Source: Bacteroidales bacterium
GTDB taxonomy: Bacteria; Bacteroidota; Bacteroidia; Bacteroidales; GCA-2711565
Length of the DNA stretch: 64,000 nt
Direction of reading: 5' to 3'
Assembly: GCA_028280405.1 (NCBI GenBank)
Contig: JANQLW010000016.1
Coordinates: 11,119 to 75,118, forward strand
Made by a program: the position numbers and the translations under genes. Below, in pieces: positions 21,927 through 55,532 of the stretch; positions within the stretch are counted from its first letter, which is position 1, and the number at the start of each line of letters is the position of its first letter. Under the pieces are notes generated by a model. That model saw only the letters and a list, made by a program, of their open reading frames with translations. It did no database searches and was not told where the DNA came from.

Positions 21927-22769
21927 TTATTTAAGTTGAGTTTTTAACCAGGTATACCATTTATCCATCCCTTCACCGGTTTTGACTGAAAGTTCAAAGA
22001 AGGTTAAATGATGATTTACTTTAAGTGCATATTCTTTTACCTTTTCAATATCAAAGTCAAGATGAGGTAAAAGGTCTGTTTTATTAATAACACAAATATC
22101 CGAAGTAGAAAACATATTTGGATACTTGATCGGTTTATCTTCGCCTTCTGTTGTGCTAATGACGACCACCCGTTTGGATTCTCCTAAATCAAACATTGAA
22201 GGACAAACCAAATTCCCTACATTTTCAATCATCAATGCTGCATAATCCTTTACTTCTAATTTTTTAACAGCTTTATTAATCATGTCAGCATCCAAATGGC
22301 ATCCATTCCCGGTATTTACCTGGACTACCGGCGCACCTGCCGATTCTATACGTTCAGCATCATTCATGGTTTGCTGATCTCCTTCAATCACATAAAAAGG
22401 AACTTCAGAACCAATTTCTTTTATTGTTCTTTCCAATAATGAAGTCTTACCCGAACCCGGTGAACTTACAAGATTTAATGCCAGGATATTTTTTGCTTCA
22501 AAATAACCTCTGTTTCTTTCAGCAAGAAGATTATTTTTATTTAAAACATTAATTTCAAGTTCAACCTCATGTGAATGATGATGATGGTGATGTGGATGGT
22601 CATGATCGTGAGTGTGATCATGTGGATGATCATGAGAATGACTGTGTCCATGATCGTGTGAGTGTTCATGGTCACCATGTGAGTGATCATGATTATGATG
22701 ATGTTCGTGTTGTTCTCCAGGTTTACTTATACGAACCTGATCGTCGCCGCAACCGCAAGTTCCGCACAT
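21927..22769 (-). CDS. hypB: Hydrogenase nickel-incorporation GTPase HypB (His-rich N-terminus)
   Basis: 280 aa. N-terminal MCGTCGCG followed by a long H/D-rich tract (HEHHHNHDHSHGDHEHSHDHGH...HHHHHHSH), then the G3E GTPase P-loop SSPGSGKTS. Confidence 0.95.
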   Translation of the reverse strand: MCGTCGCGDDQVRISKPGEQHEHHHNHDHSHGDHEHSHDHGHSHSHDHPHDHTHDHDHPHHHHHHSHEVELEINVLNKNNLLAERNRGYFEAKNILALNLVSSPGSGKTSLLERTIKEIGSEVPFYVIEGDQQTMNDAERIESAGAPVVQVNTGNGCHLDADMINKAVKKLEVKDYAALMIENVGNLVCPSMFDLGESKRVVVISTTEGEDKPIKYPNMFSTSDICVINKTDLLPHLDFDIEKVKEYALKVNHHLTFFELSVKTGEGMDKWYTWLKTQLK

Positions 22770-22784
22770 AATATTTCCTTTCTT

Positions 22785-23126
22785 TTAATCAAATTTAATT
22801 TTTCTGATTTTTAAATCTTTTCCGCTAATAATATTTGTTTCAAAGCTAGCACATTTCGGACAAACTGCAAAGAAATCATCTACTTCAAATTGATGAAAGC
22901 ATTTTTCGCAATTTGCTCTTGCCATAAGTTCTTTGAAATTTATCTTAGCATTTTGTGCAACGCCTTTTTTTACAGCTTCTTCCATTGCAAATTCCAAAGC
23001 TTCAATGATTACTCCTGACATAGATCCGATCTCAATATCAATTTCACTGATCGTTGATTTGTTGGCCTTTATTGCTTCTTCTTCTACAATCTCAACAATG
23101 TTTGTAGCTATAGATAATTCATGCAT
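22785..23126 (-). CDS. hypA: Hydrogenase nickel-insertion protein HypA
   Basis: 113 aa. N-terminal MHE nickel site and a zinc ribbon CEKC...CPKC. Confidence 0.95.
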   Translation of the reverse strand: MHELSIATNIVEIVEEEAIKANKSTISEIDIEIGSMSGVIIEALEFAMEEAVKKGVAQNAKINFKELMARANCEKCFHQFEVDDFFAVCPKCASFETNIISGKDLKIRKIKFD

Positions 23127-39169: not shown

Positions 39170-39787
39170 ATGAAATTACCAAAGAGAACTGTTCAGCGAT
39201 TAAGCCGTTATCGTAGGTTGCTATTTAAATACCGATATTTATCAGAGCCTTATATTTACTCTCATGATTTGGCAAGGTTGCTAAATCTTAACCCTGTTCA
39301 GGTGAGACGCGATTTAATGCTGATTGGAAGTTCAGGTAATCACCGAAAGGGGTATAATGTAAACGAACTGAATGATCTAATCGCTAATACTATAGATAGT
39401 TCTGAAGTTCAAAATGTAGGTATTGTTGGAATAGGTCGGCTAGGCCAGGCCATTTTGAATTATGTTTCTGATCAGGAAATGAATTTAAAAGTTGCCGCAG
39501 TTTTTGATATTGATAATAAAAAGGTAGGCAAAGAGTATGGAGATATTATGTGTTATGATATAAGCCGTATGTCGGAAATCGTGTTAGAAAAGAATATCTC
39601 TATTGGCATTATTGCCATACCTTCCGAATTTGCTACTTCAATAGCTGATATCCTTTTAAGATCCGGAATGGAAGGTATTCTTAATTTTACTAATGTGCAC
39701 CTGGATTTACCTAAGCATATTTACCTGAAAGAATTTGATATTATTACTACCCTCGAGGAAATGGCATATTTTGTGAAAAATAAGTAG
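39170..39787 (+). CDS. rex: Redox-sensing transcriptional repressor Rex (paralog 2)
   Basis: 205 aa. RLSRYRR...VQVRRD winged helix and Rossmann fold VGIVGIGRLGQA. It lies directly upstream of hoxF. Confidence 0.9.
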   Translation: MKLPKRTVQRLSRYRRLLFKYRYLSEPYIYSHDLARLLNLNPVQVRRDLMLIGSSGNHRKGYNVNELNDLIANTIDSSEVQNVGIVGIGRLGQAILNYVSDQEMNLKVAAVFDIDNKKVGKEYGDIMCYDISRMSEIVLEKNISIGIIAIPSEFATSIADILLRSGMEGILNFTNVHLDLPKHIYLKEFDIITTLEEMAYFVKNK

Positions 39788-44928: not shown

Positions 44929-45417
44929 ATGAAAATATTACTATACGGATATGGTAATCCCGGTAGACAAGATGATGGTTTAGGAAATGTTTTTATTGAC
45001 AGAATTGAAGAATGGATCAAAAAACAAGGAATTGAAGGGATTGAATTAGATAGTAATTACCAACTAAATATAGAAGATGCAGAAGCGATATCCGGTAAGG
45101 ATCTTGCAATTTTTATTGATGCATCGGTAGAGGATATTGAAGACTATTGTATCTCGAAGGTGACCGAATCTTCGGAAATTACATATACAACTCATGCAGC
45201 TTCTCCCGGCTATATCGTGGATTTGTGTAAACAAATTTATGGAAAAGCTCCGGTAACCTATTTAGTACATATTAAAGGAGTTGAATGGGCTTTTAAAGAA
45301 GGGCTTACTGAAAAAGCAGTCTCTCATTTGGAAATGGCTTTGGAGGCAATTAAGCCGTTTTTATTAAACCCACAACCTTTAATAGACGGAACTGCAGAAT
45401 ATAAAACCTGTAATTAA
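44929..45417 (+). CDS. hoxW: Hydrogenase maturation endopeptidase (HoxW/HycI family)
   Basis: 162 aa with the N-terminal motif LLYGYGNPGRQDDGLG typical of the family. Confidence 0.85.
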   Translation: MKILLYGYGNPGRQDDGLGNVFIDRIEEWIKKQGIEGIELDSNYQLNIEDAEAISGKDLAIFIDASVEDIEDYCISKVTESSEITYTTHAASPGYIVDLCKQIYGKAPVTYLVHIKGVEWAFKEGLTEKAVSHLEMALEAIKPFLLNPQPLIDGTAEYKTCN

Positions 45418-46692: not shown

Positions 46693-47100
46693 ATGAAAAA
46701 GTATTTGATGGTTATCGGAATAATTGCTTTATTAGGAGCATGCGTTTCTACTAAAGATATGGTTAAACATGATCAGTCTGCTGAAACAAAAGATAGTACA
46801 AAATATGAACTTGTAACTTTTGACTTTGGCTTTGATTCTTGGTTTGCAATGTATGAGCATAATGGAGATGTTAAAAGCCTAGATTATTATAAAAGCTGGA
46901 ATAGTCGCTATGTTACTGAATGGAACCACAGAGCTACCTCTTATTATACTAGCCGTTTTTTTAATTCTACTCTAAATTTTGATCCTTATGATATTGAGGA
47001 TTTGAAAACACAAAGAAAATTGTTTTATTATTTTCAATATGTGGAGAATAAATTGAGAATTCCTATTATTCAAGGGGGCGGACCAAGATTGTTTTATTAA
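46693..47100 (+). CDS. Hypothetical lipoprotein (135 aa)
   Basis: Signal peptide plus lipobox (LLGAC). No recognisable catalytic motif. Confidence 0.55.
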   Translation: MKKYLMVIGIIALLGACVSTKDMVKHDQSAETKDSTKYELVTFDFGFDSWFAMYEHNGDVKSLDYYKSWNSRYVTEWNHRATSYYTSRFFNSTLNFDPYDIEDLKTQRKLFYYFQYVENKLRIPIIQGGGPRLFY

Positions 47101-47147: not shown

Positions 47148-47672
47148 TTATTCCTTATTTAAGGTGATCATTATAATAAGGTCACATTTTTCATCAGTAT
47201 ATTTCTTAATTTCTTCTTTATTCCAGATTCTGTTGATTGATTTTATTCGTGCAGTATCAATTGCTTTTAACTCTTTTTGAGTCACTTTTTTCCCATCAAC
47301 AAATATAAATACTGTTTTAGGCTTTTTCTTAGCTTCATTATAAGCTTTATGGGTAACTATTTTAATCGTTCCACCCTGTGCTTGTTTTCCATATGTTTGT
47401 ATGGCTTCTACAAAATCCATTACCCTGATTTCCCTGATATCTTCTTTAGAAATTTGCAATGGGGTTTCCTTTAATTCAATATTGGACCGGTATAAATTCC
47501 CATCCAGAATAATTAGTGGGTTATATGTATTAATCTCAGCATTATCATTCAGTTCCCGAATATAATTTACCAGAAAATGTTTGTCTTCACCTTTATTTAA
47601 AAGATGGTATCGCTGTGTTGTACAGGAAGAAAAAATAAAAACTACCAAAGCTAAACGAATTAAATACTTCAT
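47148..47672 (-). CDS. Hypothetical lipoprotein (174 aa)
   Basis: Signal peptide plus lipobox (IFSSC). It lies downstream of the TonB-dependent receptor after a 221-nt gap. Confidence 0.5.
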   Translation of the reverse strand: MKYLIRLALVVFIFSSCTTQRYHLLNKGEDKHFLVNYIRELNDNAEINTYNPLIILDGNLYRSNIELKETPLQISKEDIREIRVMDFVEAIQTYGKQAQGGTIKIVTHKAYNEAKKKPKTVFIFVDGKKVTQKELKAIDTARIKSINRIWNKEEIKKYTDEKCDLIIMITLNKE

Positions 47673-47893: not shown

Positions 47894-50119
47894 TTAAAAT
47901 TTGAAAGATACTTTAGCTCTTAGTGAAAAAGGAATGCCAGGAATGAAATGAATTTCTTCAACAGGAATTGTTTCATTCATTAGTTTGCTTTCTGTAGCAA
48001 ATTGAGTTTCATTCCATTCTGTATCGAATAGATTCTCAACCATAATTTCAAAAGTCCAATGTTTATAACTATAGCTTAAATTGAAATCTGTGATGAAATA
48101 ACCTTTGGCAATGATGCTGTTGTTTTCATTTGCCGGGCGATCACTAATATATCTATATTTTATACTTCCGGCAAAACCTGAGTTGTGTTTAAAGTTTAAT
48201 CCTCCTGCAGAAGTAAATTCAGGGGCTAAAGGTATAAAGTCTTCCCCCTTTTTTTCTTCAATGGATCTGGCGTAAGCATAATTGATATCAAAATTAAAAT
48301 ATAACCAGTCGAGTATCTGATAGTTGAGCCCCATATCCAGCCCATACCTTTTTGTTTTACCACTTGGCTCTACAATGCCTTCATCACCTACATATACAAA
48401 TTCCTGTTGTAAATATAAATACCATAAAGAAGTGTTCAGTAAGAGTTTTGGATACGGCTTCCAAATAAATCCTATATCGGCACCATAGGCTGCAGGAATC
48501 GCATTTTTTACCTTATTGCTAAGCAGAAGCCTGCTATCGTTGGAGTGAAATCCTTTACCTGTTTTCAGAAAAACCTGGAAATTATTGCTTGCGCTATACA
48601 CAATGTTAAATTTAGGGCTTATAGCAGTTTCTTTTTTTACTTGTGATAAATACTCAGAAGAAAGCTGATCATAATAATCAAAAATAAAATGATCTAATCT
48701 TACGGATGGATTTAAAAGCCATTTTCCACATTTGATACTACTACTAAAATATGAATAGATATTGGTTTCATTAATGTTTCCAAATTGAATTGGGTTTAAA
48801 ACTTTTTTCCGATTTAAAGTATGAGATAATTCTACATCATTTATAATATCATATCTGAACCCTAATCCTGCCTGATTTGTTATTTCTGTCTTGCCAATTT
48901 TACTGATGCTTTTTAATTCGTTGTTCAGCCCAATGATGTGTCTATCTTCTTTTTGTTTTATTTGATCTCCATATACCGGATCGTTTAAATAAAAAGTAAA
49001 ATTGGAATATAGTTCAAAATCATATTTTGAGTAAAAAGCATTTGTCTTTAAATAAAGATCTTGGCTGATAGGCTTAAAATAATTAAAGGCAATATTTGTT
49101 CTGGATGTATTTCCTCCTTCGGTATCGTCAACTGCTCCAAAGCGTCCTATTACTCCTGAATCTACTAATCTTTGAGGAATTTGCCCTGAAGCATCCCATT
49201 TACTTTTTAAATATGAAGCCTGAAAAGATAACTTTGAATGATCTTTAAACCAGAAACTATATTTACTCATTAAGTTAACCCGGTTCAGGTTTTGAGGAGA
49301 GTCAAAAGGGCCGTCAGTTAGTAATAGTTCTGATGCAAGATAGGCCGAATTCCGTTTGTTGTTCTCCAGTAAATTAAGTAATACAGTTGTTCTGATTGTA
49401 TTAAATGAACCTAATTCCATTCCGAGTATATTGTATTCAATTCTGTCTTTAGTCTGGAAATCGACATAACCTGCAGTAGTAAAATTCCCTTTGCTTCCAT
49501 AATAGGGGCCTTTCCCGAAGTCTATATTTTTTATCGTCTCCGGAATTACAAAATGCAAATCGGCATAGCCTTGTCCGTGAGCATGGGAAACCATATTTAC
49601 AGGCATACCATCTACTGTAATATTAATATCTGTACCATGATCCAGGTCAAAGCCCCTTAAAAATAACTGTTCAGCTTTGCCGCCTCCGGCATGTTGGCCA
49701 ATTATTAGTCCCGGGACAATTCTTAATATTTCCTGAGAAGAATTTACCGGATTGGTTTGTAATTCAATTTGAGTGATGATATTCAATGTGTTTAAATGGT
49801 TTGAAATTGTGATTTCAGATAAATTGAGAGGTTCTTCTTCCAATATAATTTCTAATGTATTCTTTAAATGCTCTTCTTTTATAAGGATGAGTTTTTCTTT
49901 ATACTGAAGATGACTTATCTTAATGGTGTCCCCAATACCCACATCACTCATGTTGAAATACCCATTACTGTTAGAATGAGTATGAGATGCTCTGTTGATG
50001 TTAAGGATGTAAGCGTCCTCTATTTTAAGATTTTTTTTGTTGGAAATGTAACCTTCTATATGATATGCATATCCCAATACCGAAGGCAATAGCATTGCTA
50101 TTACAATAAATTTTTTCAT
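47894..50119 (-). CDS. TonB-dependent receptor (last gene of the NikR-headed cluster)
   Basis: 741 aa with a signal peptide, a CarboxypepD_reg-like N-terminus, a plug and a barrel ending in ...KVSFKF. Confidence 0.9.
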   Translation of the reverse strand: MKKFIVIAMLLPSVLGYAYHIEGYISNKKNLKIEDAYILNINRASHTHSNSNGYFNMSDVGIGDTIKISHLQYKEKLILIKEEHLKNTLEIILEEEPLNLSEITISNHLNTLNIITQIELQTNPVNSSQEILRIVPGLIIGQHAGGGKAEQLFLRGFDLDHGTDINITVDGMPVNMVSHAHGQGYADLHFVIPETIKNIDFGKGPYYGSKGNFTTAGYVDFQTKDRIEYNILGMELGSFNTIRTTVLLNLLENNKRNSAYLASELLLTDGPFDSPQNLNRVNLMSKYSFWFKDHSKLSFQASYLKSKWDASGQIPQRLVDSGVIGRFGAVDDTEGGNTSRTNIAFNYFKPISQDLYLKTNAFYSKYDFELYSNFTFYLNDPVYGDQIKQKEDRHIIGLNNELKSISKIGKTEITNQAGLGFRYDIINDVELSHTLNRKKVLNPIQFGNINETNIYSYFSSSIKCGKWLLNPSVRLDHFIFDYYDQLSSEYLSQVKKETAISPKFNIVYSASNNFQVFLKTGKGFHSNDSRLLLSNKVKNAIPAAYGADIGFIWKPYPKLLLNTSLWYLYLQQEFVYVGDEGIVEPSGKTKRYGLDMGLNYQILDWLYFNFDINYAYARSIEEKKGEDFIPLAPEFTSAGGLNFKHNSGFAGSIKYRYISDRPANENNSIIAKGYFITDFNLSYSYKHWTFEIMVENLFDTEWNETQFATESKLMNETIPVEEIHFIPGIPFSLRAKVSFKF

Positions 50120-50151
50120 TGTTTTAAATTATTTTTATAAAGATTGGTATT

Positions 50152-50174
50152 AACTGATTACTTTCTAATCAGTT
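50152..50174 (-). other. Intercistronic hairpin between the His-rich permease and the TonB receptor
   Basis: AACTGATTA-CTTTC-TAATCAGTT is a perfect 9-bp stem. It could be an attenuator or a processing or stability element. Confidence 0.4.
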
Positions 50175-50190
50175 GTTATTAGTGATAATT

Positions 50191-50889
50191 CTATAATCCT
50201 AAAAATACAATTGCCATTCCACTCATAAATATAGTTCCACCGGCAATTGCATGCGTATATTTTTCAAGCTTTCCAAAAGGAAGCAAATGAATACCAAAGG
50301 ATGCAAGCAATACTATAGTTAGCATTGTTGCTATTGTGATAATGGCAAATACGGAAGTTACAGCTACCATACCCCAGATGCTTAATTCAGCTGCCGGATA
50401 CATTAAGATTGGAATTAAAGGCTCGCATGGCCCCAATACAAATATTGTAAATAGGATCCAGGGGGTAAGGTTTGGTTTATGTGTATGATCATGTTCATCC
50501 CTATGGGTGTGTTCATGAACATGGATACTTCCATCTGCATGCATATGCCGGTGTTTATGTGGCTTATTCTTTATGGCTCTGTAAATTCCCCATACCATAT
50601 ATATAAACCCAAATATGATAAATGACCATGCTGCTAGGTCACCCCGGGTCCCTTCAAAAATTTTAAGCTTGTTGACACCTATCCCAAATGCCACGCCAAT
50701 GACCCCTAAAATAATTGAGCTGCCAACATGGCCCACTCCACAGGCAATGGTAAGCCATATTGTTTTCCACATTGACCATTTTCTGGCTTTTGACATCACG
50801 ATGAATGGCAAATAATGATCCGGGCCAAATAGGGTATGGGTAAATGCAATGATTGCTGCTGTACCCATTAAAACTGTTATTCCTTCCAC
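50191..50889 (-). CDS. His-rich-loop membrane protein, putative Ni/Co permease (UreH/NiCoT-like)
   Basis: 232 aa with about 6 TM helices. HTLFGPDH in TM1 resembles the NiCoT/UreH H-x(4-5)-DH signature. The central loop reads HKHRHMHADGSIHVHEHTHRDEHDHTH. Confidence 0.7.
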   Translation of the reverse strand: MEGITVLMGTAAIIAFTHTLFGPDHYLPFIVMSKARKWSMWKTIWLTIACGVGHVGSSIILGVIGVAFGIGVNKLKIFEGTRGDLAAWSFIIFGFIYMVWGIYRAIKNKPHKHRHMHADGSIHVHEHTHRDEHDHTHKPNLTPWILFTIFVLGPCEPLIPILMYPAAELSIWGMVAVTSVFAIITIATMLTIVLLASFGIHLLPFGKLEKYTHAIAGGTIFMSGMAIVFLGL

Positions 50890-50894
50890 GATTA

Positions 50895-51989
50895 TTAGTT
50901 TTTAGTTATTAGTTGATGAATTCCATCCCCATCCAATTGATTATATTTTTTGCCACTGCAAGAAAAGCATGTGCTATCTGTTATGCGGGTCGACATTGTG
51001 CCTTCTCCACATGATTTGCAAACAATACTTTCATGTGATGGAGCATAACCGGGTATTTCTACATCAATTTCTTCTATCTTAAAAAGTTTATCAAAATCTA
51101 ATGCCAAGGTTGCAAAAGCCCTGATTTTTCCGCTCTCCTTGAATTTGATAATTTCTTCTTTTGAATGATCTTGTTCTTTTACTACTTTCTGAAAACTTTC
51201 ACTGAATGCAGGATGAGCAGAACGCATAAATTTTTTTGCATCTGCTCTTGTCGAAATACGGATTCCATTTCCATCCCTACGAGTCAATGTAAAAGCTGTT
51301 TTGCCAATGTCTCTGAAAATAAGTGCGTTATTTCCAAAGGTGCACCCGGTAATAAATTGGATACCATCACTGAAACAATTATTGGTTTCCGTAATTGCTA
51401 AAAGATCTTCCAATCCATCACTATTATCCCGGATAATTTTCATTGCTTTTACAGCAGCCATTACACCCAGTGTAATTCCCGGACAATAATGGCCATGAAT
51501 GGAAGCTGCTTTTATTAATAATGTTTCCAGATCATCTCTAAGTATATCATTGATGATCTCTCTTCTCGGGTTATTTTTTAGTTCTTCTAAACGAATATGA
51601 TCCAGCTTGTTTTCAACCATTGAAAAATCAACAGGCTTAATATCCAGAACAGGAGTATTATTTAAAGCATCCAAACCAATTACTGTTAATATATTCCCTT
51701 TTACCTCAAGTAATTTCACAGTTGTAATACCAATTGAACTGGGACGATCAGGTTTTCTGGTTGAAAATACACCTTTATAGTTTCCTCTAAGGGTTGTAGC
51801 TTTTAATTCATAAGAATCAGATTGATTGAATTCAAATACAATATCAATAAATTCGTATTCTTCTATACGATACAAGCCTTCTAGAAATTCATCTTTTATG
51901 ATAATCTGACTTTTATGTTTTTTTATCTCAAAAGGATTTTTCTCTGAGTCAAAATTATTTTTAACGGTTCCTATTTCTGTAATTCTCAT
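50895..51989 (-). CDS. Fusion protein: TsaA/YaeB (TrmO-like) N-terminal domain + FmdE-like domain + C-terminal zinc ribbon
   Basis: 364 aa. The N-terminal part, ...VFSTRKPDRPSSIGITTVKLLEVKGNILTVIGLDALNNTPVLDIKP, is the TsaA fold signature. The central IHGHYCPGITLGV is the FmdE signature. The C-terminus carries CKSCGEG...CFSCSGK. Confidence 0.75.
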   Translation of the reverse strand: MRITEIGTVKNNFDSEKNPFEIKKHKSQIIIKDEFLEGLYRIEEYEFIDIVFEFNQSDSYELKATTLRGNYKGVFSTRKPDRPSSIGITTVKLLEVKGNILTVIGLDALNNTPVLDIKPVDFSMVENKLDHIRLEELKNNPRREIINDILRDDLETLLIKAASIHGHYCPGITLGVMAAVKAMKIIRDNSDGLEDLLAITETNNCFSDGIQFITGCTFGNNALIFRDIGKTAFTLTRRDGNGIRISTRADAKKFMRSAHPAFSESFQKVVKEQDHSKEEIIKFKESGKIRAFATLALDFDKLFKIEEIDVEIPGYAPSHESIVCKSCGEGTMSTRITDSTCFSCSGKKYNQLDGDGIHQLITKN

Positions 51990-51990
51990 C

Positions 51991-52752
51991 TTAGTTTGTT
52001 TTGGGTATTATAAAATGATCTCCATTATTATGTATGACATTTACTTTCACGTCGTAAAGGTTTTCAATCGTATGATTTGAAATAATTTCTTTCCCTCCGC
52101 AGGCGAATAATTCTCCTGATTTTAGTAATATGAAATGGTCGCTGAATTGTAAAGCCAGGTTTAAATCATGTATCGCTACTATAACTGTGATCCCTTGTGA
52201 GGATAAGTCTTTTAGAAGCTTCAGAACTTCAAGTTGATGCTTGAGGTCAAGGTTGGCTGTAGGTTCGTCAAGTAATAAAATCTCAGGTTGTTGAGCCAGG
52301 GCCCTGGCAATAAAAACTCGTTGTCGTTGTCCACCACTTAGTTTATTTATACTCTTCTGAGATATGCCCTCCAAATCAAGTTTTTCAAGGGTAGCAGCAG
52401 TAATCTTCAGGTCATCGTTTTTGGGAGACCATTGTATATGTGGCTTTCTTCCCAGTAAGACCGTGTCAAAAACGGAAGCTGGAAAAGTCCCTCCTTCGCT
52501 TTGCGGAACATAAGCGATCTTTTTTGCCAGTTCATTTGCTTTGAATTTGGATATCTCAACAGCATCAATAAGTATCCTGCCTTTTTGAACTTTTAAAATA
52601 CGGTCAATACATTTGAGCAGTGTGCTCTTTCCAGAACCGTTGGGACCAACAATACTTATCAGTTTCCCTTTTTCAAACTGGTGTGAGATATTTTTCAACA
52701 CTAAATTCCCATTATACCCAAAATCCAGGTTTTGCAGCTCTATTTTAACCAT
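51991..52752 (-). CDS. ABC transporter ATP-binding protein (FecE/FepC/BtuD class)
   Basis: 253 aa with Walker A GPNGSGKST, signature LSGGQRQR and Walker B ILLLDEP. Confidence 0.95.
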   Translation of the reverse strand: MVKIELQNLDFGYNGNLVLKNISHQFEKGKLISIVGPNGSGKSTLLKCIDRILKVQKGRILIDAVEISKFKANELAKKIAYVPQSEGGTFPASVFDTVLLGRKPHIQWSPKNDDLKITAATLEKLDLEGISQKSINKLSGGQRQRVFIARALAQQPEILLLDEPTANLDLKHQLEVLKLLKDLSSQGITVIVAIHDLNLALQFSDHFILLKSGELFACGGKEIISNHTIENLYDVKVNVIHNNGDHFIIPKTN

Positions 52753-53813
52753 AGGTTCTTCCCCCTTCCTTTGATTAATAATATGATGAATATGGGTGCC
52801 CCGATAAATGAGGTTAAAATACCAACAGGTAATACCATTGGTGCGATGATACTCCTGGCAATTAAGTCGGAACTTAGCAAAAATACTCCACCAAATAATG
52901 CTGTTGCAGGGATTAAAAATCGTTCGTCGCTTCCAATCATTCTTCTGACTAAATGTGGAACAACCAGGCCTACGAAAGCAATAATGCCAAAAAAAGATAC
53001 GGCAACGGCAGTTGTCAATGATGCTATTAGCATGACCCTGATCCTGGTTTTTTCAACGTTTACCCCCAAACTATTCGCTGTTTCATCTCCGGTATTTAAA
53101 GATTGAATATTCCATCGATTCCAGATGAAATAAAGTAGAGCAGGAATTATAATTGCAAGCAGAATATAAAATTCATTCCAGGAAGCTCTCCCCAGGTCTC
53201 CGAAAGTCCAGAAGACAATAGATGCAAGCTGGACATCTTCGGCAAAAAATTCAAGTGCCGTTGTGCCGGCTATAAATAGTGAACCCATGATAATTCCTGT
53301 AAGTATCATCGTCTCTGGTGAAGCATCTTTAAACCTGGCCATAAAAAGAATCACAAAAGTGCTGGCCAGGCTCCAGAAAAAAGCAGAAATGGTTATTAGG
53401 TATGGATTATCAATTAAAACAGCATCGAATACACTGCTTTGCGTTGAACCTGCCCCTAATACAATAACCGCAAAAGCTGCTCCAAATGCAGATGCATTTG
53501 AAATTCCCAACGTAAAAGGAGACCCTAAAGGGTTTCTTAATATACTTTGCATAACAGCTCCCGATACACTTAAAGCCATTCCGGCTAAAACGGCTGATAA
53601 AACTCTCGGTAAACGGATATTTAAAACAATCTGTCTTTTGCTGGATTCCGAACCAGAAAAAATACTATTAAAAATATCGGTAAAACTAATTTGGGAAGAA
53701 CCAAAAGTAATTCCCAGCGTTATCAGTAGTAGAAGCATAATCAAACTCCCAATCACAAAAGCCCGTTTTCGGGTAGTAATTTTTTTATATTCTTTGATTA
53801 CACTTTTATTCAT
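52740..53813 (-). CDS. FecCD-family ABC permease
   Basis: 357 aa with about 9-10 TM helices and the FecCD pattern (GSPFTLG.., ..GIIAFVGLVVPHLVR..). Confidence 0.9.
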   Translation of the reverse strand: MNKSVIKEYKKITTRKRAFVIGSLIMLLLLITLGITFGSSQISFTDIFNSIFSGSESSKRQIVLNIRLPRVLSAVLAGMALSVSGAVMQSILRNPLGSPFTLGISNASAFGAAFAVIVLGAGSTQSSVFDAVLIDNPYLITISAFFWSLASTFVILFMARFKDASPETMILTGIIMGSLFIAGTTALEFFAEDVQLASIVFWTFGDLGRASWNEFYILLAIIIPALLYFIWNRWNIQSLNTGDETANSLGVNVEKTRIRVMLIASLTTAVAVSFFGIIAFVGLVVPHLVRRMIGSDERFLIPATALFGGVFLLSSDLIARSIIAPMVLPVGILTSFIGAPIFIILLIKGRGKNLWLK

Positions 53814-54933
53814 AATTTAATTTTCCATAGCCCATTCCATACAAATTCACCATCTCATCATAAATAGCCTTGTTCAAAAATTGTTGATAAACCTGATTTG
53901 CTGTTTCCTTTATATTAAAATCCGGGAATTGTTCAGGCTTGAGAATGCTGGCGATATAATATGTATTGATTAAAATATGTTCATAATTAATCGTGTTCCA
54001 AATATGTGGTAAGAGCGTATAAACCTCTCCTTTTTTTATAGCCGGAATAAGTTTACCAAAAGTCGAATTTTTATCCAGGTCTTTCTTTGATAGCTTATAT
54101 CCGGAAATATCGATAAAAATTTTATCTGGGTTCCACTTAATAATTTCTTCTTTGTCAATAAGAACTGTTGTAAGTTTTGAAAAACCGGACTTGGAGTTTT
54201 GGATGAGTTCTTCTGCAGGATTGATACAATTTGTATACCTGAAAGGAGCATATTTAGGTTCGGTTGAATTTATCCCATGTGCCCCTCTATATGCAATACC
54301 TCCTATATAAACCCTTTCTTTATTGAATGATTGGCTGCATTTCAATTTGATCTCTTCCAGATTTGTCTCCATAAATGTTATCAGGCTATCGGCTCGTTTT
54401 TCCTTATTGATCAACTTTCCTAGTAGTTTAAGAGATGCATAGAATTCTTTTTTATGATCGTTAAAGTCTCCGTAGTTGAGACAAACTACCGGAATTCCTG
54501 TCTTCTTTTGCAACTCATCTGCTTCTGAACTTGAGAAATATGTGCAAAAAATAATATCCGGTTGAAGGGCTGTGATTAACTCTGGATCAGCACTATTGCC
54601 GGAACCGATCAGAGGCAATTTTCTTAATTCCGGGTAAGCATATAAATAAGGTACACTTCTTCTTCTTTCATTTGCTTCAATACCAATGACTTTTTGAGTG
54701 GCATTCAGATAACATATCATTCGCAAAGCTCCGGATCGATGGGCAATAATTTTATTGATCTGTTTTGGAATATGAACCAGTCTTCCGTTCATGTCCTTTA
54801 TTTCAACCATTTCGGCTCTGGTTTTGTTTTGCTTTGTTTGAGTACAAGAAGGAAAAATAATTAGGAAAATAATACCCCCCAAACTTATACTTGCCCAAAA
54901 TGGTGTTAATATTTTTATAAAGGTGTTACTCAC
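53806..54933 (-). CDS. Periplasmic substrate-binding protein (FepB/BtuF/CeuE class) of the ABC importer
   Basis: 375 aa with an N-terminal anchor plus Cys (IIFPSC). Its gene overlaps the permease gene by 8 nt. Class assignment rests on operon position and general resemblance. Confidence 0.75.
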   Translation of the reverse strand: MSNTFIKILTPFWASISLGGIIFLIIFPSCTQTKQNKTRAEMVEIKDMNGRLVHIPKQINKIIAHRSGALRMICYLNATQKVIGIEANERRRSVPYLYAYPELRKLPLIGSGNSADPELITALQPDIIFCTYFSSSEADELQKKTGIPVVCLNYGDFNDHKKEFYASLKLLGKLINKEKRADSLITFMETNLEEIKLKCSQSFNKERVYIGGIAYRGAHGINSTEPKYAPFRYTNCINPAEELIQNSKSGFSKLTTVLIDKEEIIKWNPDKIFIDISGYKLSKKDLDKNSTFGKLIPAIKKGEVYTLLPHIWNTINYEHILINTYYIASILKPEQFPDFNIKETANQVYQQFLNKAIYDEMVNLYGMGYGKLNYE

Positions 54934-54946
54934 TGTGTAAAAATTT

Positions 54947-55348
54947 TTATTTAGCAGTACTCATAACCAATTGTCCGTGTTTAATCCCTTTTATAGCAAT
55001 CAATTTGTTTGATAATTCAATAAGTTCACTTGCCTTTCCTTTTACTGCAATTGTTTCCAGACAGTTATCGTGGTTTAAATGTACATGCTGCACGGATAAA
55101 ATTAAATGATGATAATCATGCTGTAATTCAGTAGAGCGTGTTTGTAATCCACGTTTATGATGGTCATAAACTAAAACAATTGCTCCTGCAACTTCCTCAT
55201 TTCCTTCCCATTCATCTTCAACCAGATTCTTTTTTATAAGATACCTGATGGCTTGTGAACGGTTTGGAAAATTTTGAGTTTCCACTAACTTGTCCAGATT
55301 CTTAAGCAAATCTTCTTCTAAAGAAACTCCAAATCTTTTTACTTGCAT
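54947..55348 (-). CDS. nikR: Nickel-responsive regulator NikR
   Basis: 133 aa. It has a ribbon-helix-helix N-terminus ([17 protein letters not shown]...[10 protein letters not shown]) and C-terminal Ni ligands (YDHHKR...QHDYHH...[11 protein letters not shown]) collinear with E. coli NikR. Confidence 0.9.
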
Positions 55349-55351
55349 CTC

Positions 55352-55378
55352 GTGTTACGTTTATGGGATTGGTGACAC
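55352..55378. promoter_or_regulatory. Candidate NikR operator GTGTTAC-N13-GTGACAC
   Basis: An inverted repeat (one mismatch from perfect) starts 4 nt upstream of the nikR ATG. It has the same half-site and spacing as the GTGTTAC-N13/14-GTAACAC NikR signal that I recall from comparative genomics of non-enterobacterial NikR regulons. Confidence 0.55.
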
Positions 55379-55532
55379 AAATGTAAATATAATTTTTATA
55401 GAGATAACAATTAGATTTGATTCTTTTGGTATTTATTTTTGATATAAATAAGAGTGGGGTGACACCCATTGGGGCGTCGCCCTGAAGGGCATCACCCCTA
55501 TATTCTTTTTTCTTAAATTTGTCAAAAAAACT

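Follow-up and report, generated by a model that had tools for sequence, protein, structure and literature searches.

The 64,000-nucleotide stretch of the Bacteroidales contig JANQLW010000016.1 analyzed here (the window) carries on its minus strand, at 47894-55378, a nikR-headed cluster of seven genes that is probably a high-affinity nickel acquisition operon, repressed by NikR when nickel is sufficient and combining two inner-membrane routes, a cytoplasmic accessory protein and an optional TonB-dependent step. An earlier, sequence-only reading had proposed NikR-controlled nickel acquisition at this locus; comparative genomics strongly supports that proposal, but the label 'Niu-type', which applies to the importer just at the level of the superfamily, and the idea of a seven-gene unit both had to be corrected. 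Although all seven genes are present in the window, the core conserved among relatives consists of nikR, an ATP-binding cassette (ABC) importer of the FecCD class and a fusion of TrmO_N and FmdE domains, with the His-rich permease and the TonB receptors being variable members of the locus type.

The genes were identified by scanning the window with Pfam and NCBIfam profiles using curated cut-offs. All seven open reading frames lie where they had been placed, in the order nikR, binding protein, permease, ATPase, fusion, His-rich permease and TonB-dependent receptor, and the profile matches back each identity. The close packing described for them also holds: the binding-protein gene starts 13 nucleotides (nt) after nikR and overlaps the permease gene by 8 nt, the permease and ATPase genes overlap by 13 nt, the fusion begins 1 nt past the ATPase stop, the His-rich permease follows 5 nt past the fusion, and the receptor 71 nt past that permease.

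The regulator gene (nikR, 54947-55348) encodes 133 amino acids (aa) with the RHH_1 and NikR_C domains (ribbon-helix-helix PF01402, 2e-6; PF08753, 3e-31) and scores 161 bits against NCBIfam model NF003381, above the equivalog cut-off of 105. In E. coli NikR the high-affinity nickel ligands are His76', His87, His89 and Cys95, and the window protein contains the pattern H77-x10-H88-x-H90-x5-C96, which recurs in 38 of 38 related NikR proteins. When searching the 64 kb for GTGTNAC-N12-15-GTNACAC, we found one exact match (0.01 expected), the inverted repeat GTGTCAC-N13-GTAACAC at 55352-55378 that had been noticed earlier at the nikR start and that ends 3 nt ahead of the nikR ATG. Bacteroides and other Bacteroidota promoters have the -7 consensus TAnnTTTG; scans for sigma-70 promoters and terminators gave chance-level counts and are uninformative for Bacteroidota, and this element was read by eye instead. 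A candidate for it (TAcaTTTG, 55378-55385, minus strand) overlaps the left operator half-site by one base. The operator fits the consensus GTGTTAC-N13/14-GTAACAC reported for NikR of delta-proteobacteria (PMC545781).

A relaxed search of the window, with as many as two mismatches tolerated and three spacings tried, added a single further site, GTAACAC-N13-TTAACAC at 54903-54931, which overlaps the opening codons of the binding-protein gene. Similar sites occur just past the nikR stop in at least nine related loci (L081, L003, L005, L011, L023, L029, L065, L066 and L072), and this one is a probable second NikR operator, with the uncertainty that its overlap with a conserved protein N-terminus may contribute to the match.

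Relatives of the locus were collected by a scan with an alignment of the fusion protein in one genome per GTDB species, which gave 408 loci, 80 of which were fetched (L numbers). Nearly all belong to Bacteroidales, Marinilabiliales and other Bacteroidota, along with a few Balneolales and one metagenome-assembled genome (MAG) of Methanofastidiosum. Two of the carriers are cultured strains, Natronoflexus pectinivorans DSM 24179 (L040) and Alkalitalea saponilacus DSM 24412 (L041). The recurring order is nikR, an optional TonB receptor, binding protein, permease, ATPase, fusion and an optional His-rich permease, and in almost all of the 80 loci the fusion closely follows the ATPase or nikR. Upstream sequence of at least 6.5 kb was available for 50 loci. 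Of these, 35 have nikR upstream in the same orientation, 41 contain the ABC genes and 25 encode a receptor; in six, nikR accompanies the fusion, with or without the permease, and the ABC genes are missing (for example L007, L025, L038, L068 and L072). The His-rich permease directly follows the fusion in 22 of the 66 loci with enough downstream sequence.

The co-occurrence of this gene set with NikR boxes, a comparison that the sequence-only reading had suggested, was borne out, in that nikR, its operators and the cluster are linked across relatives. Operator-like sites with up to two mismatches number 63 in 290 kb of cluster regions, compared with 38 in the other 888 kb of the loci, and most of the 39 nikR genes whose upstream 60 nt were aligned share the arrangement TAnnTTTG-half-site...GTAACAC-ATG, with the operator 1-3 nt ahead of the ATG. 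Six loci without nikR have an operator site upstream of the receptor gene instead (L049, L056, L061, L063, L077 and L079). The half-sites in many loci form a direct GTAACAC repeat rather than an inverted one, the GTnAC core being palindromic. B12 riboswitches in place of NikR boxes had been named as one contrary outcome, and an Rfam scan of the window and eight nikR-less loci found no cobalamin riboswitch; we reject B12-riboswitch control for these sequences because the sole match was an unrelated thiamine pyrophosphate (TPP) riboswitch in L047.

Nickel enzymes are also frequent neighbors. Genes of the hox and/or hyp sets lie within 10 kb in 15 of the 80 loci, and L068, L078 and L054 show the order hypFCDE-hypA-hypB-nikR-[receptor-ABC]-fusion-[permease] ahead of a convergent hox operon, while the fusion and permease adjoin hox without ABC genes in L062, L064 and L080. 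In the window, the hox/hyp set is 2.5 kb from the cluster, as had been claimed, and ends at 45417; it comprises hypE, hypD, hypF, a Rex-like gene, hoxF, hoxU, hoxY, hoxH and a maturation protease, with hypA (22788-23126) and hypB (21939-22568) farther away. The Rex-like redox regulator (Put_DNA-bind_N and CoA_binding domains, 39170-39787) is directly upstream of hoxF.

The importer itself is encoded by a class III binding protein (53806-54933; 375 aa; GTG start; Peripla_BP_2, PF01497, 1.4e-21), a FecCD/BtuC-type permease (52740-53813; 357 aa; FecCD, PF01032, E = 2e-93) and an ATPase (51991-52752; 253 aa; ABC_tran, PF00005, 4.1e-34). The binding protein has a lipobox (FPSC), and the Cys30 of this motif does not vary among 17 homologues. 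Of the proteins with solved structures, Thermotoga TM0189 is the closest to it (2ETV; 1.9e-74, or 3.5e-116 with a profile), and the profile also retrieves 4HN9, 9HRJ, the molybdate/tungstate binder HI_1472 (MolA, 5e-27) and YiuA; a literature search on 2ETV/TM0189 and 9HRJ found nothing relevant. Helicobacter pylori NiuB (4INO/4LS3) matches the profile at E = 4e-5 over the partial stretch 246-343. Thus, the description 'Niu-type' is apt for the adjacent and overlapping genes of a class III binding protein, FecCD permease and ATPase, but the binding protein is not an orthologue of NiuB. Because the NiuB match is so weak relative to that of TM0189, a FecCD-class importer appears to have been recruited to nickel independently, with no Niu orthologue involved.

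One alternative is another cargo, such as a ferric siderophore, heme, a corrinoid or cobalt, or molybdate/tungstate, carried by the ABC importer and receptor while NikR merely cross-regulates them. The best NCBIfam neighbors of the permease and ATPase are indeed BtuC, FhuB, Fec and heme components, the binding-protein relatives include MolA and siderophore binders, and the FmdE name stems from operons for Mo/W formylmethanofuran dehydrogenase, although only a minority of the family sits there (PMC2954224). However, the permease falls below every NCBIfam equivalog cut-off (BtuC, FhuB, FecC/D), and the ATPase below those of its nearest models (heme, Fec and corrinoid ATPases), both by a wide margin. 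With nikR and its operators conserved across the family, the cluster repeatedly placed between hypAB and hox, a dedicated nickel-type permease co-encoded and the cobalamin riboswitch not found, we consider a different cargo very improbable.

The fusion protein (50895-51989; 364 aa), earlier described as TsaA-FmdE, is borne out by Pfam matches to TrmO_N (3.6e-24) and FmdE (PF02663, 8.8e-32), to which a Cys4 zinc ribbon is added; it has no signal peptide, and its architecture is common to more than 1000 clusters at 90% identity. An AlphaFold2 model (predicted local distance difference test score, pLDDT, 89; predicted template-modeling score, pTM, 0.77) has halves that match AF0241 (2NV4, TM-score 0.83) and Ta1109 (2GVI, 0.70), and structure comparison of the model found no solved structure spanning both. 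Residues H165, H167, C169 and C205 are invariant in 53 fusion homologues, with the spacing of His15/His17/Cys19/Cys55 in 2GLZ, and so are the zinc-ribbon residues C324, C327, C341 and C344. Equally invariant are R78, D107 and K118, corresponding to three of the four S-adenosylmethionine (AdoMet) contacts of AF0241 (Arg82, Asp111 and Lys122), but the fourth (Gln22, in the PRQG loop) is lost, its position being Glu or variable in a shortened loop. The His2Cys2 site held mixed Zn/Ni in the 2GLZ crystal, and most FmdE genes adjoin metal transporters (PMC2954224).

Database names for this protein conflict (homologues P0001-P0360), with TrmO used by NCBI, formylmethanofuran dehydrogenase subunit E by JGI, and SAM-dependent methyltransferase elsewhere. 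Taken at face value, they would make it a plain tRNA m6t6A methyltransferase TrmO, or the dehydrogenase subunit, placed in the operon by chance, and the TrmO_N fold is confirmed, with three of four AdoMet contacts kept. Yet the score against the TrmO equivalog TIGR00104 is 81.8 bits with a cut-off of 93.25, and the DPRxxY C-terminal domain, which E. coli TrmO requires for m6t6A formation (PMC4132733), is absent, its place being taken by FmdE and the zinc ribbon. Neither name is likely to fit, because the score is below the cut-off and both the Gln contact and DPRxxY are missing. We also found no fmd or fwd genes in the window or the 80 loci, and the tight position behind the ATPase or nikR argues against a chance placement, leaving this explanation with hardly any credibility.

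A third possibility, put forward in the sequence-only reading, is that the fusion is an AdoMet-using enzyme making or unmaking a nickelophore, so that the system would import and process a chelate. Opine metallophore synthesis does use AdoMet (CntL), the AdoMet-type pocket is largely kept, and chelate uptake systems typically contain TonB receptors and a class III binding protein. But no locus contains an exporter or further biosynthetic genes, the closest relatives (L002-L008) lack a receptor, and the fusion occurs with nikR and/or the secondary permease where both the ABC genes and a receptor are missing (L007, L064 and L068). Chelate processing is therefore a predicted role somewhat weakened by the nikR-fusion loci without ABC genes, and the enzyme hypothesis as a whole is unlikely. 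A more general cytoplasmic nickel-handling protein fits better, because no other gene accompanies nikR as constantly as the fusion does, whether or not the ABC genes are there.

We tentatively extend this idea to suggest that the fusion might represent a new nickel-trafficking family, the most constant nikR partner across at least 408 species genomes, which could receive nickel from either importer at the His2Cys2 site, recognize or modify an amino-acid-like ligand in its AdoMet-type pocket and supply [NiFe] hydrogenase when nickel is scarce. This is a possibility rather than an expectation; if true, it hints at the role of many unexplained archaeal TrmO/YaeB and FmdE paralogues beside metal transporters. 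A replacement of HypA/HypB by the fusion was considered and rejected, as the window has both hypA and hypB.

Two of the related loci show other settings of these domains. The NikR-headed L052 (1593-12140) encodes a secreted 484-aa protein in which IU_nuc_hydro (nucleoside hydrolase) is joined to FmdE, with a TonB receptor gene on either side, and an additional secreted FmdE-like protein of 264 aa after the cytoplasmic fusion; owing to these secreted proteins, nickel loci apparently employ the FmdE domain in the periplasm as well. In L075 (2762-15995), from the Methanofastidiosum MAG, the fusion stands behind a FecCD-class ABC system flanked by CbiM/NikM-, CbiQ- and CbiO-like genes, a stand-alone TsaA-like gene and a second FecCD-class system, and no NikR-type site was detected there.

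The last two genes are the least constant. The His-rich permease (50191-50889) is of the six-transmembrane type, with HTLFGPDH in its N-terminal first helix and a loop, HKHRHMHADGSIHVHEHTHRDEHDHTH, containing 13 histidines; the HxLxGPDH or GPDH motif is kept in relatives. It matches no NCBIfam model and, in Pfam, only the generic DsbD_2 (PF13386, 34.7 bits with a cut-off of 24.9), which we take to be a UreH-like transmembrane family; related permeases score 26.7-36 bits against it, with one undetected. We propose that it is a secondary nickel importer. Its homologues are named inconsistently as sulfite exporter TauE/SafE, NicO transporter or RcnA exporter, and because these names conflict, co-regulation is the single guide to the direction of transport.

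The TonB-dependent receptor (47894-50119; 741 aa) has a Plug domain (1.5e-13) and CarbopepD_reg_2, gives weak full-length matches to TIGR01783, and has close homologues for which the barrel model PF00593 is recorded (for example P0123 and P0124). Receptors were compared by BLASTP, as phmmer with the window receptor matched nothing in the loci even at E = 10. Only in L081/L082 and L083 is the permease likewise followed by a homologue of this receptor (61-64% identity). Most relatives encode a receptor of another kind, placed between the nikR and binding-protein genes and about 20% identical to the window receptor, and the closest relatives L002-L008 have none; L081 contains both types and the window just the downstream one. 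From this patchy distribution, the window receptor appears to be a lineage-specific add-on. The hairpin claimed ahead of it is present but weak (50152-50174, minus strand), consisting of nine A/U-rich pairs with a folding energy of -8.7 kcal/mol (z = -2.4); five of 200 shuffled sequences form a structure as stable, no U tract follows, and L081 and L083 do not preserve the hairpin. No TAnnTTTG element was found in the 71-nt spacer, and the lack of both a -7 element and a U tract suggests that permease and receptor may be co-transcribed.

Two side observations concern the surroundings of this receptor. Past it are genes for a 174-aa lipoprotein without a Pfam match (47148-47672) and a DUF6146 protein (46693-47100), which are syntenic in L081, the lipoprotein being 52% identical there; they could represent a surface lipoprotein that goes with the receptor, or unrelated neighbors. 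In L084 (4314-9214, Flavobacterium sp. Sr18), a member of the receptor family with 59% identity comes after a TPR gene and two DUF4331 genes, next to an extracytoplasmic function sigma/anti-sigma pair, and this looks like a widespread, uncharacterised uptake module.

These features raise the question of whether the functional unit is smaller than seven genes, with the His-rich permease being an RcnA-like nickel/cobalt exporter and/or the receptor an independent gene. His-rich loops occur in RcnA too, several sources label the permease homologues nickel/cobalt exporters, and the receptor is set off by 71 nt and a hairpin, is missing from most relatives and belongs to a family with non-nickel contexts. 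On the other hand, it would make little sense for an exporter to be repressed along with importers when nickel is high, and the permease lies 5 nt from the fusion and pairs with it beside hox even without ABC genes. For the receptor, the spacer without TAnnTTTG or U tract and a position kept in three or four independent assemblies argue for membership. We regard the smaller unit as doubtful.

Weighed as a whole, the nickel acquisition reading has a number of observations standing against it. Class III binding proteins and FecCD permeases usually carry siderophores, heme, corrinoids or oxyanions (MolA); TM0189, the nearest relative of the binding protein, is an uncharacterised structural-genomics entry without a known ligand, and NiuB orthology had to be rejected (a partial match at 4e-5 compared with 3.5e-116 for TM0189). 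For the permease homologues, exporter labels (TauE/SafE and RcnA-type) are as frequent as that of nickel importer, and nickel at the fusion His2Cys2 site in vivo is a prediction. The window receptor family is common in Flavobacterium, where its neighborhood has no nickel context. Fifteen of the 50 well-flanked loci have no nikR nearby, and the operator scan of nikR-less loci found no recognizable site in L046, L047, L067 and L071. In the window, neither the exact nor the relaxed search of the 64 kb located a NikR site at the hox or hyp genes; with this and the Rex-like gene upstream of hoxF, the hydrogenase appears to be redox- rather than nickel-regulated.

Given the observed linkage of nikR, operators, importer and fusion, we nevertheless infer nickel as the probable substrate and envisage the following mechanism. 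Nickel-loaded NikR would bind the operator fused to the -7 element, covering the nikR leader of about 20 nt, and probably also the second site at the nikR/binding-protein junction, and both together would block transcription of nikR and the genes behind it. When nickel is scarce, the TonB-dependent receptor would move a nickel species across the outer membrane, and the lipoprotein binding protein would pass it to the FecCD-type permease and ATPase, with the His-rich permease acting as a second, ABC-independent inner-membrane route for Ni(II). The TrmO_N-FmdE protein may then take the incoming nickel at its invariant His2Cys2 site and buffer it or pass it on, ultimately toward HypA/HypB and the neighboring Hox [NiFe] hydrogenase. 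The ligand of its AdoMet-type pocket could be AdoMet or an amino-acid-like molecule.

One further feature lies just outside the operon. The spacer between nikR and the divergent truA contains a perfect GC-rich hairpin (55456-55498; about -31 kcal/mol and z about -5, whichever strand is folded) with U-rich tails on both sides. The window has no second hairpin of this kind, and the corresponding spacer of relatives lacks it. It resembles a terminator or insulator that acts in both directions, perhaps halting read-through from the upstream transketolase genes into nikR.

Nickel supply limits the activity of hydrogenase, urease and CO dehydrogenase in anaerobic communities, and this locus type is a candidate nickel route for a large group of sediment, bioreactor and soda-lake Bacteroidales with Hox hydrogenases. 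Names in databases that mislead (TrmO, formylmethanofuran dehydrogenase subunit E and sulfite exporter) are put right, and a NikR-linked context is given to FmdE and archaeal-type TrmO/YaeB, two families with non-canonical members that have no assigned function. We found no description of a nickel importer of Bacteroidota or of this locus type in the searchable literature, which leaves most subscription journals and RegPrecise-type databases outside it.

Among known systems, the components can be compared individually. The FmdE structures 2GLZ, 2GVI and 3D00 share the alpha+beta core, the His-His-Cys-Cys site and a C-terminal zinc ribbon with the window domain, which differs in being fused to a TrmO-like barrel and encoded in a NikR-headed operon. 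That barrel resembles the class VIII AdoMet methyltransferases of the TrmO/YaeB family (E. coli TrmO and AF0241) in fold and in the Arg/Asp/Lys AdoMet contacts, but lacks the DPRxxY tRNA-binding domain and the Gln contact, and it is similar to the archaeal paralogues. The permease is like those of the UreH and HupE/UreJ types in its small multi-transmembrane build, nickel-enzyme neighbors, N-terminal H-x5-DH-type motif and His-rich loop, although its one model match is the generic DsbD_2.

As a system, the closest parallel is Helicobacter NiuBDE (CeuE/FecDE) with FrpB4/FecA3, which has the same combination of NikR control, TonB-dependent outer-membrane step and class III binding protein/FecCD permease/ATPase. 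The window locus differs in its phylum, in a binding protein only distantly related to NiuB, in an operator type unlike that of H. pylori, and in forming one nikR-headed operon with the TrmO_N-FmdE fusion and His-rich permease added. The NikR regulons predicted for delta-proteobacteria share the operator consensus of the window, including re-oriented half-site variants (PMC545781), and a NikR-linked TonB receptor was predicted in Caldithrix, a relative within the Fibrobacteres-Chlorobi-Bacteroidetes (FCB) group (PMC5317091). However, these delta-proteobacterial and Caldithrix regulons (nikMNQO, nikKL and TonB receptors) involve Nik(MN)QO transporters of the energy-coupling factor type and have neither a FecCD-class importer nor a TrmO_N-FmdE gene. 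Thus, NikR-controlled uptake of nickel by a TonB and an ABC system is known already from Helicobacter, and predictions of NikR-linked TonB receptors exist for several phyla, that of Caldithrix among them; what is new here is the TM0189-like transporter lineage, the phylum, the single nikR-headed operon with its operator-fused -7 box, and the conserved TrmO_N-FmdE partner.

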